From Escherichia coli (GTDB lineage: Bacteria; Pseudomonadota; Gammaproteobacteria; Enterobacterales; Enterobacteriaceae), in assembly GCF_003334385.1 (NCBI RefSeq), contig NZ_QOWN01000001.1: a DNA stretch of 64,000 nucleotides, one strand, 5' to 3'. The position numbers were made by a program. This document shows positions 24,001-30,000 of the stretch, piece after piece (position 1 is the first letter of the stretch; the number at the start of each line of letters is the position of its first letter).

Positions 24001-27000
24001 GGGATTATTCAGGAACATGGGAAATTTGGTAACTCAACCACAAATGACTTCTATCTGTCAGGCCCATTGATTAAGGATAAACTTGGTCTTCAGCTATATG
24101 GAGGAATGAACTATCGCAAGGAAGATAGTATCTCTCAGGGAACACCGGCAAAAGATAATAAGAATATAACGGCAACGCTCCAGTTTACTCCGACTGAAAG
24201 CCAGAAGTTTGTTTTTGAATATGGAAAAAATAACCAGGTGCATACATTAACACCAGGTGAGTCTCTCGATGCCTGGACTATGCGGGGAAATCTTAAACAA
24301 CCAAACAGTAAAAGAGAAACGCATAATTCACGTAGTCACTGGGTAGCAGCATGGAATGCCCAGGGCGAAATACTGCATCCTGAAATTGCTGTTTATCAGG
24401 AGAAAGTTATTCGTGAGGTTAAATCAGGTAAAAAAGATAAATATAATCATTGGGATCTTAATTACGAGTCAAGAAAACCGGAAATAACCAACACAATCAT
24501 AGATGCAAAAGTGACGGCATTTCTGCCGGAAAATGTACTGACCATCGGAGGTCAATTTCAGCATGCAGAGCTCCGTGATGACTCAGCCACGGGTAAAAAA
24601 ACGACAGAAACACAGTCTGTTTCAATTAAACAGAAAGCTGTTTTTATAGAAAATGAATATGCAGCAACGGATTCTCTCGCCCTGACTGGAGGACTGCGTC
24701 TCGATAATCATGAAATCTATGGCAGTTACTGGAATCCAAGATTGTACGCTGTTTATAACCTGACCGATAATCTCACACTCAAAGGGGGGATCGCAAAAGC
24801 ATTTCGGGCTCCTTCAATTCGTGAGGTGAGTCCTGGATTTGGAACACTGACGCAGGGTGGTGCCTCTATTATGTATGGAAACAGGGACCTGAAACCGGAG
24901 ACCAGTGTAACCGAAGAGATCGGTATTATTTATAGTAATGATAGTGGTTTTTCGGCGAGCGCGACGCTGTTTAATACTGATTTTAAAAATAAGTTGACCA
25001 GTTACGATATAGGTACAAAAGATCCAGTCACCGGGTTAAACACTTTTATTTATGATAATGTAGGTGAGGCAAATATCAGAGGGGTGGAGCTTGCAACTCA
25101 GATTCCTGTGTATGATAAATGGCATGTATCTGCAAACTATACATTTACTGACTCTCGTCGAAAAAGTGATGACGAAAGTCTCAATGGCAAGTCGCTGAAA
25201 GGGGAACCTCTGGAAAGAACTCCCAGACATGCAGCCAATGCAAAACTGGAATGGGATTACACTCAGGATATTACATTTTATTCATCTCTGAATTATACGG
25301 GAAAACAAATCTGGGCAGCACAAAGAAATGGTGCTAAGGTTCCCCGCGTTCGTAATGGATTCACATCTATGGATATTGGTCTAAATTACCTGATTCTGCC
25401 AGACACGCTGATTAATTTTGCCGTTCTTAACGTCACAGACAGAAAGAGCGAGGATATCGATACCATTGATGGTAACTGGCAGGTCGATGAAGGACGCCGT
25501 TATTGGGCTAATGTAAGAGTATCCTTCTGAGAGTATATAAAGACAACCTGAGGCCGTGAGCCTCAGGTACCAGTGTAGTAATCAGTAATGTCAGTTTCCA
25601 GGTTGTAATGCTTTTAATCTTGATTAAAATAATCTTAATAATTTAAACTTGTTAAATATCGATGATTTTAATTTGAGAGCGTTCAGAATTCTGTGTCACG
25701 TTAAAAATTCTACAGCGTCATCACATTATTCAGCCGCCCTTCAAAATAAATGGCTAACTGCGACAATGTCAAATTCCAGCTTTGGATGGGCATTGTCCAT
25801 TTCTCCTGTGCGTTCATCAGTCCCAGATAAAGTAGCTTCAACAGGCTGTTTTCATTCGGGAAAGCACCTTTAGGTTTTGGTCAGTTTCCTGAACTTGCGG
25901 TGGACTGATTCTATCGCGTTGGTTGTGTAGATCACCTTGCGGATATTCGCCGGATAGCGGAAGTACGCTGACAGATTTTCCCTCTTGCGGCGCCAGGACT
26001 GGAGCACCACCGGATATTGCTGCCCCCGTTTCGCTTCCAGCTCATCCAGCGCCGTTTCCGCTGCTTCTTTTGACACCGCACGATACACTGGCTTCAGGTC
26101 GGCCATGAACGCTTTATGGTGTTTTGACGCCACATATTTAATCGAGTTACGTATCTGGTGAATGACGCACAACTGTACCTCTGTCTGCGGATAAATGCTG
26201 TTTATCGCTTCAGGGAAGCCGGTCAGCCCATCCACGCAGGCAATCAGAATGTCTTCAACGCCACGGTTTTGCAGATCACTTAATACTGACAGCCAGAAGT
26301 TAGCGCCTTCGCTTTCCGACAAATACAGGCCCAGGACTTCTTTTTTGCCTTCCAGATTCAGCGCCAGTACGGTATAAACTGCCTTGCTCTGATAACACCC
26401 ATCTTCGCGGATTTTATAGTGAATGGCGTCCAGCCAGACGAAGGGATAAACCTTTTCCAGCGGGCGCTGCTGCCACTGTTTTAACTCAGGAATGACTTTA
26501 TCGGTAACCGCACTGATGGTAGCCGTGGAAACACTGAAGGCATATAAATCTTCGATCTCCCGGCTGATATCCTGGTAGCTCATCCCCAGCGCGAACAGGC
26601 GAATGATCTTGCGCTCGAGCTCATCAGACAACGTGGTCTGGTGCTTCTTCACCAGTTGGGGTTCAAAATAACCATTACGATCACGTGGAGTTGCCAGCTC
26701 AAAGCTGCCAGTCGGGGCTTTAATGGTCTTTTTTCCGGAACCATTTTTACGATTGACTTCAACATCCTGAGCCAGATGGGAGTCGAGTTCAGCGGCCAGA
26801 GCGGTTTCTGTTAACTGTTTGATTAATGGCGTTAGGATACCATCCTTGCCGGTTAATGCTTGGCCGGATTGAACCGCCCCGGGAATCCTGGAGACTAAAT
26901 TCCCTGAGAAAGAGGTAAACAGGATGACTAAAAAAACACTTTTTTCCCCCGAAGTCCGTCAACGGGCAGTTCGTATGGTTCTGGAAAGTCAGGGCGAATA

Positions 27001-30000
27001 TGACTCACAATGGGCGGCAATTTGTTCCATTGCTCCAAAGACTGGCTGTACGCCGGAGACTCTGCGTGTCTGGGTTCGCCAGTATGAGCGGGATACCGGA
27101 GGCGGTGATGGTGGGCTTACCACCGCTGAACGTCAGCGTCTGAAAGAGCTGGAACGTGAAAATCGTGAACTGCACCGCAGTAACAATATCCTTCGCCAGG
27201 CTTCCGCTTATTTTGCGAAGGCGGAGTTCGACCGCCTCTGGAAAAAATAATGCCACTGCTGGATAAGCTGCGTGAGCAGTACGGGGTCGGACCGGTATGC
27301 AGTGAACTGCATATTGCCCCGTCAACGTATTACCACTGTCAGCAGCAGCGGCATCATCCTGATAAACGCTGTACCCGTGCGCAGCGCGATGACTGGCTGA
27401 AGAGAGAGATACAGCGCGTATACGATGAAAATCATCAGGTGTACGGTGTGCGTAAAGTCTGGCGTCAGTTGTTACGGGAAGGAATCAGGGTGGCCAGATG
27501 TACAGTGGCGCGCCTCATGGCGGTTATGGGACTTGCCGGTGTTCTCCGGGGTAAAAAGGTCCGCACTACCGTCAGCCGGAAAACCGTTGCCACAGGTGAC
27601 CGCGTAAACCGTCAGTTCGTGGCAGAACGTCCTGACCAGCTGTGGGTGGCTGATTTTACTTACGTCAGCACATGGCAGGGCTTCGTCTATGTGGCGTTTA
27701 TCATTGATGTGTTTGCTGGATACATCGTGGGGTGGCGGGTCTCATCGTCTATGGAAACGACATTCGTGCTGGATGCGCTGGAGCAGGCGTTGTGGGCCCG
27801 TCGTCCGTCTGGCACCATCCATCACAGCGATAAAGGCTCTCAGTATGTGTCACTGGCCTATACGGAGCGACTAAAAGAAGCCGGATTACTGGCATCAACA
27901 GGGAGTACAGGCGACTCGTATGACAACGCGATGGCTGAGAGCATCAATGGTCTTTACAAAGCGGAGGTAATACACCGTAAGAGCTGGAAAAACCGTGCAG
28001 AAGTGGAACTGGCCACACTAACGTGGGTGGACTGGTATAACAATCGACGATTGCTGGGAAGGCTGGGCCATACTCCTCCGGCAGAAGCAGAAAAAGCTTA
28101 TTATGCTTCCATCGGAAACAATGATCTGGCAGCCTGAGTTCACAGATAAAACACTCTCCAGGAAACCCGGGGCGGTTCAGTTTATGGGTTTGGGATGAAA
28201 CGGGAAAACCAACAAGAAAAACATGGGATCCTCAGACTGAAGACTGGTCAGAGGACAGCAAGGCCGGTGGAGCCGATAATGTTTTTAAATCACGTTTGCC
28301 AAGACCAATGCGAATTAGATCACTGGATGATGCAGCGACTACAGAAGAGACATTGCTCACTCTTGCGTTGACTCCCTTAGTGAAAGAGTTGAAGGCTCTG
28401 GAGTGTAATAAAGAGTCACAAATATCAAAAGTTAAAGCAGCTTTGGTTAAAGCTGTAAATGAGATCGCTGAACCTCATCAAGAACGATTTTCTTCTATTT
28501 CTCGACAAATTCAGACAGGGTTTCAACATGTCTTTCCTGCTCTTGGTGTTCAGCTCAGTGTTGAAATGAATCCACCTGAGCTTAAAATAGACAATTTATT
28601 AAAGCAGGGGTCTGGTTTATTAGTCAAAGAGGCTGCGGGAAACTCTCGCATTGGGCAACAGGGGACAGGAGCAAGACGAGCTCTTTTTTGGGCAATGCTC
28701 CAGGTTCATAATGAAATTAGCCGACAAAATGAAAAGCGAGAAGCTCTTCTTAAATCCTTTAGAGAACAACTTAAAAAAGAGGTGAGGAAAAATGTAAAAA
28801 GTGAAAATATAAATCTTCTGAAACAACAAATAGATGCTATTGAAAATGGCGCCCCTGTTCCTGAAGATACAGACGATCCAGCCTTGCCCGGATATATTCT
28901 TTTAATGGATGAGCCAGAAAATGCGTTACACCCAATGGCTGCCAGAGCGGCGCAAGCGCATCTTTATGAACTTGGTAAACATCCAGATTGGCAGGTGCTA
29001 TTAACAACTCATTCACCATACTTTATAAACCCTCTTGAGGATCATACTACGATTGCTCGTATGCAACGTTCAACAGATGGGAAATCACTTTCTCCACGCT
29101 TGTATGTGGCTGATGAAGCTAACTTCTCACCTGATGAGAAAGATAATTTACAGGCACTACAACTTACAGATATTGGTTTTGCTGAAATATTTTTTGGGAG
29201 TTATCCAATTATTGTTGAAGGTGATACTGAACATGCGGCATTTATTTCAGCAATCACTAAAGAAAAACATGAGATGTCAGGTAAGGTAAGTATTGTCAGA
29301 GCCAGAGGTAAGGCGGTTCTGGTTCCTTTGATAAAGATGTTAAATCATTTTAAAGCAGATTTTGGGATTGTACATGATATTGATTGGCCTTATCGTAGAG
29401 ATGGTTCGAATAATGGTTCATGGACGCTTAATACGATCATTAGAAATGAGATTATAAAATGCAGGAATAATGGGAAAAAAGTATATCATCGTTGGAGTGC
29501 CCCCGATTTTGAGCGTTTTTTAGGTGGTGAGGAGTTGGGGAAAGATAAACCCTATACAGCATTTAATCGAATTTCGCGCGATGAAAAATTAAAAGAAAAG
29601 ATTCAAAATCTTATAATTAATTTGTTTGAAGGGGAGTGTTATGATCCTGATGACTTTGAACCCGATGATGATTTTAATGCTCAACTCATGGAACAATTAA
29701 AAATATGGGCAAAAAATAATGGTGAAAGTGATAATGTTCGCGTTATGGGATGCTGATTATAACATTGGTTAATGGCTGGGTTTCATATAAATGACTTTGC
29801 ATAACTAATTCGTTTTTGCTGTTTTTATATAAAGCCTTTAGGACGTTGTGGAAGGGGAAGTGTTGCAATTTATTCAGTGAGATAGTTTGTTTGTAGGGTA
29901 TTTAAACGCATTTTGGTGATCATTTGTTGTTCAGGATAGTGTGGCGAATATGAATGGTAAATATAATGTCAGGAGTGAATTGTTAGCTCGTTGTATCGGA

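Follow-up and report, generated by a model that had tools for sequence, protein, structure and literature searches.

An IS629 copy without a target-site duplication joins truncated IS256-family and OLD-family genes in an ireA/pap/tia island of Escherichia coli

An IS629 isoform in the stretch of Escherichia coli DNA analysed here (the window, 64,000 nucleotides) sits between two truncated genes, and we favor a history in which the element inserted into an IS256-family element and DNA was afterwards lost in cis from the IS629 right end; we put the probability of this reading at about 0.55. The junction is a routine IS rearrangement within an ireA/pap/tia island common to more than 100 extraintestinal pathogenic E. 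coli (ExPEC) genomes. The features concerned are listed in Table 1.

Table 1. Coordinates of IS629, its neighbours and related sites in the window
Feature	Positions	Strand	Remarks
ireA, TonB-dependent siderophore receptor	23482-25530	+	Left neighbour of the IS256 remnant; 682-aa ORF; named IreA by PGAP in identical genomes
IS256-family element remnant	25675-26868	-	Aligned to the intact A37 element and the uninterrupted SCU-101 copy
IS256 transposase pseudogene	25710-26868	-	Older frameshift near 25870
Base abutting IRL	26869		T in the window, C in ancestral GGAC; from alignment of the window, CFT073, 14EC020 and SCU-101
IS629 isoform (IS3 family)	26870-28179	+	1,310 bp; looks intact
IS629 IRL	26870-26910		Inverted-repeat analysis
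IS629 orfA	26924-27250		ORF call
IS629 orfB	27250-28137		ORF call
IS629 IRR	28139-28179		Inverted-repeat analysis
5'-truncated OLD-family nuclease gene	28180-29756	+	Frame open from the IS end
Hypothetical gene	29941-30594	+	217 aa; always follows the OLD gene
PAPS-reductase-like gene	30730-31962	+
ATC unoccupied target	54096-54098		Between papG-II and tia

IS629 and its truncated neighbours

The terminal inverted repeats of the window IS629 are imperfect; they start TGAACCGCC, and their 41-nt arms are 78% complementary. Its orfA (108 amino acids) and orfB (295 amino acids) overlap at position 27250, its transposase matches NF033516 (IS3 transposase) at 8.1e-94, and PGAP annotates a programmed-frameshift transposase (-1, orfA/orfB) together with an AL1L pseudoknot. 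By the ISfinder convention, isoforms share at least 95% nucleotide identity with the reference IS; across its full length (1-1310), the window copy is 96.9% identical to the annotated IS629 of O157 Stx phages. In length, inverted repeats, transposase and an identity of at least 95%, the element is thus an IS629. The 3- to 4-bp target-site duplication of IS629 is absent, the flanks reading ...ccGGAT on the left and GTTTatggg on the right. No second IS629 copy was found within the window. An IS3-family pseudogene lies near 41 to 42.5 kb and has no blastn similarity to IS629.

The gene to the right of IS629 encodes an OLD-family nuclease that has lost its N terminus. The break falls within codon 102 (...tcgtcagaa/gtttatggg), so that 304 bp (101 codons) are missing; the first ATG of what remains is at 28308, and the PGAP coding sequence is 482 amino acids long. 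The Walker A motif GPNNSGKTT occupies residues 33 to 41 of the intact protein and is therefore among the deleted codons. The remnant matches the PADLOC model 'Old' at 1.4e-54, but only over profile positions 113-523 of 578, whereas the intact 626-aa homologue matches it at 1.2e-67 over positions 3-524. That homologue contains both halves of Pfam AAA_15/AAA_21 plus OLD-like_TOPRIM, with the C-terminal AAA parts and OLD-like_TOPRIM at residues 340-385 and 439-503. The Walker B/signature region and the C-terminal Toprim domain are retained in the window copy, and the N-terminal ABC-type ATPase part with Walker A is not. At the DNA level this retained part shares 98.4% identity with the intact homologue, from which it differs by 17 synonymous and 6 non-synonymous changes; as most of these are older than the truncation, they carry no information on present constraint.

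With Walker A missing, the window product is presumably inactive as an ATP-dependent nuclease. In more than 100 genomes a frame of 524 codons does remain open from the right end of IS629 onward, and a Walker-A-less protein might in principle be made, by read-through or through internal initiation, and be kept as a Toprim nuclease with altered regulation; we regard this as very unlikely, as we do the separate proposal, taken up below, that the change at position 26869 is a priming footprint. The 482-aa 'ATP-dependent nuclease' found in more than 100 ExPEC genomes is this truncated OLD and does not belong in counts of functional defence genes. The intact 626-aa gene occurs in 24 of 5,426 complete E. 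coli genomes and in all 24 is preceded by a VasL remnant; the three loci that were inspected (VTB97432v, M18 and TUM12357) are preceded by type VI secretion remnants and lack ireA within 14 to 40 kb. The 217-aa protein encoded 3' of OLD had no PADLOC or NCBIfam match.

The left neighbour is an IS256-family element whose outer inverted repeat begins near 25675 (GAGAGCGTTCAGAATTCTGTGTC). Its transposase pseudogene is collinear with the intact relative from codon 16 onward; about 101 bp ahead of that point are missing, made up of 15 codons, the 5' UTR and the terminal inverted repeat. The class assignment was made on the intact relative from strain A37, which encodes a 400-aa transposase (NF033543 match, 1.5e-121), as is characteristic of the IS256-type (Transposase_mut) transposases of about 400 amino acids. 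Of the two terminal inverted repeats, the window has just the one near 25675; the other (...GACACAGAATTTCTAACACTC) is seen in A37, SCU-101 and 14EC020, and a search across the window for the IS256 tail that carries it was negative.

The initial annotation had described the two neighbours as an IS256-family transposase and an OLD-family gene, each devoid of its N terminus, and had counted the ATPase head of the latter among the missing DNA. Alignment to intact relatives bears out each of these points and leaves neither gene intact; the lack of a duplication between GGAT and GTTT, also noted there, is equally confirmed.

The original insertion into the IS256-family element

Comparison with related genomes, which the initial annotation had proposed, recovered the empty site, the simple insertion and the intact OLD gene. 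SCU-101 carries an uninterrupted IS256 element, and its empty site has a single GGAC. In 14EC020 the filled site reads GGAC/TGAACC...GGTTCA/GGAC, that is, IS629 bounded by a 4-bp duplication and followed by the IS256 tail. About 158 complete genomes have IS629 at this exact base, again with the GGAC duplication and with the IS256 tail after it. The left junction in the window is therefore the original insertion junction. The right one alone is secondary: the insertion did generate a GGAC duplication, but its right-hand copy has since disappeared from the window. Since the empty site of SCU-101 and the filled site of 14EC020 fix the ends of the element, a duplication cannot be rescued by placing those ends elsewhere. 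The IS256 tail was found in just 199 genomes, approximately the number expected from 14EC020-type and plasmid copies. Roughly 300 genomes carry the left junction between the IS256 element and IS629.

Across about 1,230 bp of flank, the window/CFT073 lineage has just two substitutions of its own, one of which is the C-to-T change that turned GGAC into the GGAT of the window. Copy-out priming in the IS3 family starts 3 nt outside the IS end and might conceivably have left its mark in this change, which affects the base next to IRL.

Loss of DNA to the right of IS629 and competing histories

The history that we propose has three steps that can be read from the genomes compared. An IS256-family element lay beside ireA; IS629 inserted 45 bp into its transposase ORF, with the 4-bp GGAC duplication; and the DNA to the right of IRR was lost, including the second GGAC, the ~101-bp IS256 tail and the 5'-terminal 304 bp of OLD. 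The fourth step would be a cis deletion with one endpoint at the right end of IS629. It may have been a one-step, transposase-mediated adjacent deletion, or a second IS629 may have entered OLD locally in direct orientation, with homologous recombination deleting the DNA between the copies. The outcome is a single IS with mismatched flanks beside an immobile IS256 remnant. An IS629-associated rearrangement rather than a simple insertion had already been proposed from the window alone; our evidence supports this and fits adjacent deletion and two-copy recombination alike.

The window junction is also present in 100 complete genomes, and the junction of IRR with the truncated OLD gene was recovered from 11 metagenome contigs, which served as a positive control for the reciprocal-junction search; it is therefore not an assembly artefact. 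Some metagenome contigs join other left flanks to this IS629; they were discounted, since short-read assembly across a 1.3-kb repeat can be chimeric. The other IS629 copies with reciprocal flanks that the initial annotation had suggested looking for did not materialize: among 5,426 complete genomes the OLD head is confined to the 24 with the intact gene and is never beside IS629, and the reciprocal junction (OLD head, GTT or GTTT, then IRL) had no match in complete E. coli genomes, metagenome contigs or one-genome-per-species contigs. Because no reciprocal flank was found, the intervening DNA appears to have been lost, not moved.

Deletion in cis gains support from eight related genomes in which the same IS629, with an identical left junction, abuts the PAPS-reductase gene at 30757 or 30760. 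These genomes carry a further deletion on the IRR side, of 28180 to 30756/30759 (about 2.58 kb); this loss from the same IS629 end points to a nested deletion series. Deletion in cis also accords with the ~4.5-kb loss beside an IS629 copy in CFT073 and with the record of IS629 in O157 genomes, both described below. Several observations count against it. A collinear ancestor, with ireA, the IS256 element interrupted by IS629 and an intact OLD gene in one island, was not found in the sampled genomes, and neither the three inspected OLD loci, which have no ireA nearby, nor the 14EC020 island fits that description; in 14EC020-type islands the IS256 tail is followed by different DNA (Gp2/YagK, hlyE and fec), and the pgt block there runs opposite to that of the window.

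The strongest alternative, which we rate as possible but at less than even odds, is recombination in trans. A second IS629 would have inserted into OLD on another island or module, and recombination with the copy resident in the IS256 element would have joined the two. The union of an ireA module with an OLD-ibrAB-PerC-pgt-pap module would then reflect the assembly of a mosaic island, with no deletion inside a single island. In favor of this, the 24 intact OLD genes are all in other island contexts, with no ireA nearby at the three loci inspected; the window lineage has at selC island modules that are nearly identical to those of CFT073 and HM670 at pheU; and papGII islands are reported to recombine and to switch tRNA site (PMC7686366). 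Homologous recombination inside IS629 also does occur in this island family, as the reciprocal chimeras of CFT073 described below illustrate. Furthermore, the window and 14EC020 copies of IS629 differ at 47 of 1,310 positions, compared with 4 substitutions and one indel in 1,230 bp of flank. This roughly 10-fold greater divergence of the IS than of its flank indicates sequence exchange between the window IS629 and other copies of the element, a finding no less compatible with recombination in trans. Against this reading, the SNPs within the window IS629 form a patchwork, not a clean two-part chimera, and neither a simple insertion of IS629 in OLD nor an OLD head joined to IRL occurs in the 5,426 complete genomes, the metagenome contigs or the species representatives.

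CFT073 raises a different possibility, as it holds the left and right junctions of the window on two separate inverted copies, ISa (IS256'/IS/papG side) and ISb (AAA'/IS/OLD'), with the same ~26-kb block between them in the opposite orientation to that of the window. The window junction could thus be the product of recombination between inverted copies of this kind, with no DNA lost, a reading that we consider extremely unlikely. The window has no second IS629 to act as a partner. The right flank of ISa maps to window positions 54096-54098, and this site is continuous sequence in hundreds of genomes. Seven related genomes with otherwise window-like islands carry a second, inverted IS629 there as a simple insertion with a 3-bp ATC duplication, and ISa and ISb each combine parts of those two IS copies, as reciprocal chimeras that cross over at about 535-632. 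On account of the continuous site, the simple insertions and the chimeras, the polarity is the reverse: the CFT073 island is derived from a window-like island via a second IS629 insertion, an inversion inside the IS and another adjacent deletion, seen as a loss of ~4.5 kb on the IRL side of the copy derived from the window-type IS629. The GAT/GAT flanks of ISa had suggested a CFT073-type ancestor; this was ruled out because the sequence to the right of ISa is not IS256, and the same three observations exclude it further. These flanks are a recombination coincidence that resembles a target duplication, and they call for caution in duplication-based inference.

Finally, that IS629 simply inserted into a pre-existing fusion of two truncated genes, its duplication erased by mutation or masked by mis-set ends, is hardly credible: mutation of the flank does occur here (C to T at the base abutting IRL), but the same insertion in 14EC020-type genomes precedes the IS256 tail and not OLD, the empty and filled sites leave no freedom in placing the ends, GGAC to GTTT would need three changes, and the sequence beyond GTTT is not IS256.

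Comparison with known islands, defence systems and IS629 elements

Across the junction, identity of the window to APEC O1, S88 and the E. coli type strain is 99.9 to 100%. Its island contains ireA, pgtABCP, a pap operon with papG-II, and tia, and is akin to PAI I of APEC O1, the CFT073 pheU island and the papGII islands of Biggel et al. 2020. PAI I of APEC O1 carries ireA, pap and tia (PMC3349570), and selC (yicL-yicJ) is listed among the integration sites of papGII islands (PMC7686366). No description of this IS629 junction or of the truncated OLD gene was found in the accessible literature, a body that does not take in the original account of PAI I. The significance of the event beyond annotation is small. 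It does provide a worked example of how one IS629 reshapes a virulence island, through insertion, nested adjacent deletions, a second insertion, a chimeric-IS inversion and a further deletion.

Compared with OLD-family nucleases of the P2 Old type, which combine an ABC-type ATPase head with a Toprim nuclease, the window copy is without the Walker A part. It is not one half of a Gabija pair: its best model is 'Old' and not GajA, and neither a GajB-like (UvrD-like) helicase nor another partner gene was recognized beside it. Nothing suggests IEE-type excision, as IS629 is retained in the window.

In O157 genomes, IS629 is flanked by a 3- to 4-bp duplication at 21 of 47 sites and lacks one at the other 26 (PMC3271280), and a further report describes how it gives rise to inactivated genes and genomic deletions in O157 (PMC9943667). 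The element studied here resembles its O157 counterparts in producing a 3- to 4-bp duplication on simple insertion (GGAC and ATC), in its tendency to sit without a duplication, and in its role in deletions. Unlike them, it resides in an extraintestinal pathogenic lineage, within a papGII virulence island and not in an O157 prophage or backbone.

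Original insertion of IS629

The IS629 copy has 96.9% full-length identity to copies annotated as IS629 in O157 Stx phages and is the only one within the 64-kb window. Its flanks read ...ccGGAT / IS / GTTTatggg, so that the 3- to 4-bp repeat is absent, as the initial annotation had stated. IS629 makes 3- to 4-bp duplications, and in O157 genomes one was seen at only 21 of 47 sites (PMC3271280). Alternative IS ends that might hide a duplication are excluded, because the empty site of SCU-101 and the filled 14EC020-type site (GGAC/GGAC) fix the ends of the element.

The left neighbor, a minus-strand IS256-family transposase pseudogene, is collinear from codon 16 with an intact 400-aa relative, confirming that it lacks its N terminus; an older frameshift is common to the window and SCU-101. 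Three states of this site were recovered. In SCU-101, ireA adjoins a complete IS256 element, and the target is uninterrupted with a single GGAC. About 158 14EC020-type genomes carry the filled state (GGAC / TGAACC...GGTTCA / GGAC), a 4-bp duplication followed by the IS256 tail, the last ~100 bp of the element (15 codons, untranslated region, and inverted repeat). The window has the same left junction as the 14EC020 type, and the tail is gone. The tail was found in only 199 genomes, a number roughly accounted for by 14EC020-type genomes and by copies of related IS256 elements on plasmids. This, together with the shared left junction, identifies the window left junction as the one created by the initial insertion; what looks like a "truncation" of the transposase is therefore the IS629 insertion itself. 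The comparison shows that IS629 originally inserted with a duplication.

The ancestral target is GGAC; the base touching the left inverted repeat (IRL) has changed to T in the window and the CFT073 lineage and is C elsewhere, one of only two window/CFT073-lineage substitutions in about 1,230 bp of flank. Metagenome contig L022, which may be chimeric and has a patchwork IS, pairs C at this base with the window-type right junction. In two strains with the window-type junction, B2.3 and cS91a, this IS629 is interrupted by a group II intron (ltrA reverse transcriptase/maturase).

Coordinates of IS629, its junctions, and associated features
Feature	Sequence	Coordinates	Length	Remarks
IS629 copy	window	26870-28179	1310 bp	41-nt imperfect inverted repeats; IS3-type orfA/orfB
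Orthologous IS629 copy	L004 (14EC020)	7319-8628		
IRL-adjoining base	window	26869		T
Indel in IS256 flank	window	26060-26071	12 bp	
IS629 locus with group II intron	L017 (B2.3), L018 (cS91a)	8125-10388		
GAT flanks of ISa	L002 (CFT073)	7376-7378, 8689-8691		
Site matching ISa right flank	window	54096-98		
IRR/PAPS-reductase breakpoint, HM670	window	30760		
IRR/PAPS-reductase breakpoint, Z22-2	window	30757		
Junction IRR/CTTACTGG	L016 (HM670)	21851/21852		
Junction IRR/GTCCTTACTGG	L019 (Z22-2)	1801-1804		seven genomes
OLD gene with head indel	L014 (M18)	14001-15619		
IbrB-like gene	window	31947-32592		
IS1 of UPEC132	window	about 33805		absent from window
pgtABCP block	window	34576-41016		
pgtABCP block	comparison locus L010	25150-31590		
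Gp2-hyp-HTH module	window	42551-44727		

Loss of the right flank

The OLD-family gene on the right was likewise correctly described as lacking its N terminus. The intact homologue (626 aa) matches the PADLOC "Old" profile at 1.2e-67 and has Pfam AAA_15/AAA_21 and OLD-like_TOPRIM domains. The window copy starts within codon 102, lacks 304 bp including the Walker A motif (GPNNSGKTT) of the ATPase, and aligns to the profile only from position 113 onward. In practical terms, what is annotated as a 482-aa "ATP-dependent nuclease" is an OLD gene without its head. The 3' part is present in 133 genomes. Exactly 24 have the 5' head, which in every case runs on into the remainder of the gene and has a VasL remnant (a type VI secretion relic) just upstream; in the other 109, the IS629 right end marks the start of the gene, at an identical base in all. 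Mouse-derived strains (M18 and other mouse isolates) carry a small indel in the head of an otherwise complete OLD gene (308 versus 311 bp), annotated just as a shorter coding sequence, which looks like an independent inactivation route.

Had IS629 merely inserted in the OLD gene, a reciprocal junction (OLD head, GTT or GTTT, IRL) would be expected. Searches of complete genomes, metagenome contigs, and species representatives detected none, so the IS629 copies with reciprocal flanks that had been anticipated were not recovered; as a positive control, the window-type right junction was present in 11 metagenome contigs. The OLD head was therefore lost, not relocated. The right flank, IS256 tail and OLD head included, was lost after insertion, and IS-anchored deletions and homologous recombination between IS copies recur in this island family. 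IS629 is a recognized source of deletions (PMC9943667). The reading of the junction as an IS629-mediated deletion or intercopy recombination was correct.

We infer that the right flank was first lost through a deletion in cis, with a probability of roughly 0.55, which would have occurred either in one step or after another IS629 had inserted nearby and the two direct repeats had recombined. Against it, no collinear ancestor exists among three intact-OLD loci (VTB97432v, M18, and TUM12357) and the 14EC020 island. A trans route, in which the recombining IS629 partner lay within the OLD gene on another island, is possible and distinctly less probable. The window IS629 differs from its 14EC020 orthologue at 47 of 1,310 positions, versus four substitutions and one indel in ~1,230 bp of adjoining IS256 flank, which is compatible with the cis and trans routes alike. 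IS629 divergence this far above that of the flank shows sequence exchange with other copies, and IS629 copies here have been overwritten piecemeal by one another.

Later rearrangements at the same element

In CFT073, the two window junctions lie on separate, inverted IS629 copies (ISa and ISb) on either side of the same ~26-kb block. A GAT stands at each end of ISa, resembling a 3-bp target duplication. This was rejected as the ancestral state, as the polarity is opposite. Hundreds of genomes have continuous sequence where the ISa right flank maps, and in seven genomes with an otherwise window-like island this site holds an additional IS629 in inverted orientation, inserted simply and bounded by an ATC duplication. 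ISa joins copy 1 (positions 1 to 620) to copy 2 (632 to 1310), and ISb joins copy 2 (1 to 535) to copy 1 (566 to 1310); they are reciprocal chimeras of the two copies present in the seven genomes. The window-type junction is therefore older. The GAT/GAT is a false duplication that arose by chance: on the left, GAT comes from the mutated GGAC flank, and on the right it represents the ATC duplication made by another IS629 copy, which inversion carried there. After the ISa/ISb recombination, CFT073 lost about 4.5 kb beside the ISb IRL: tia, the gene for a phosphoethanolamine transferase, and the 3' 1,767 bp of a 3,516-bp AAA gene.

HM670 and seven further genomes have an identical left junction (GGAT), and in them the right inverted repeat (IRR) adjoins the PAPS-reductase gene, an additional loss of ~2.58 kb that took away the truncated OLD gene together with the gene after it. 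The IRR-anchored deletions form a nested series from the same IS629. The secondary junction is offset by exactly 3 bp between HM670 and the seven genomes, equal to an IS629 duplication length.

Island setting

The window belongs to a virulence island of extraintestinal pathogenic E. coli that is inserted at selC, with yicL on one side and tRNA-Sec/yicJ on the other; among the genes present are ireA, pgtABCP, a pap operon that includes papG-II, and tia. Positions 25500 to 29800 have 99.9 to 100% identity with 100 complete genomes; APEC O1, S88, the E. coli type strain, and numerous ST95-like isolates are among them. UPEC132 is otherwise the best match around the junction; the window is not UPEC132 itself, because the IS1 near 33.8 kb is missing, and its strain background differs, because core genes at the left end have just 94 to 97% identity.

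Near-identical island modules occupy selC in the window lineage (1 to 64000) versus pheU in CFT073, HM670, and FCI5 (L002, L016, and L013), and the terminal modules differ between sites (TPR gene and selC-type integrase versus AAA gene and phe-type integrase). The pgtABCP block has the opposite orientation relative to ireA in 14EC020-type islands, and the Gp2-hyp-HTH module has 93% identity to one directly after the IS256 tail of 14EC020; these are two signs of older rearrangements. The IbrB-like gene (ParB N-terminal domain), 3' of the PAPS-reductase-like gene, is frameshifted in the window and intact (639 bp) in genomes retaining an intact OLD gene.

As an IS-mediated rearrangement in genomes that have been heavily sequenced, the junction is ordinary. 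This ireA/pap/tia island has already been described for APEC O1 (PMC3349570) and is a member of the papGII islands, which are known for recombination and for switching tRNA sites (PMC7686366).
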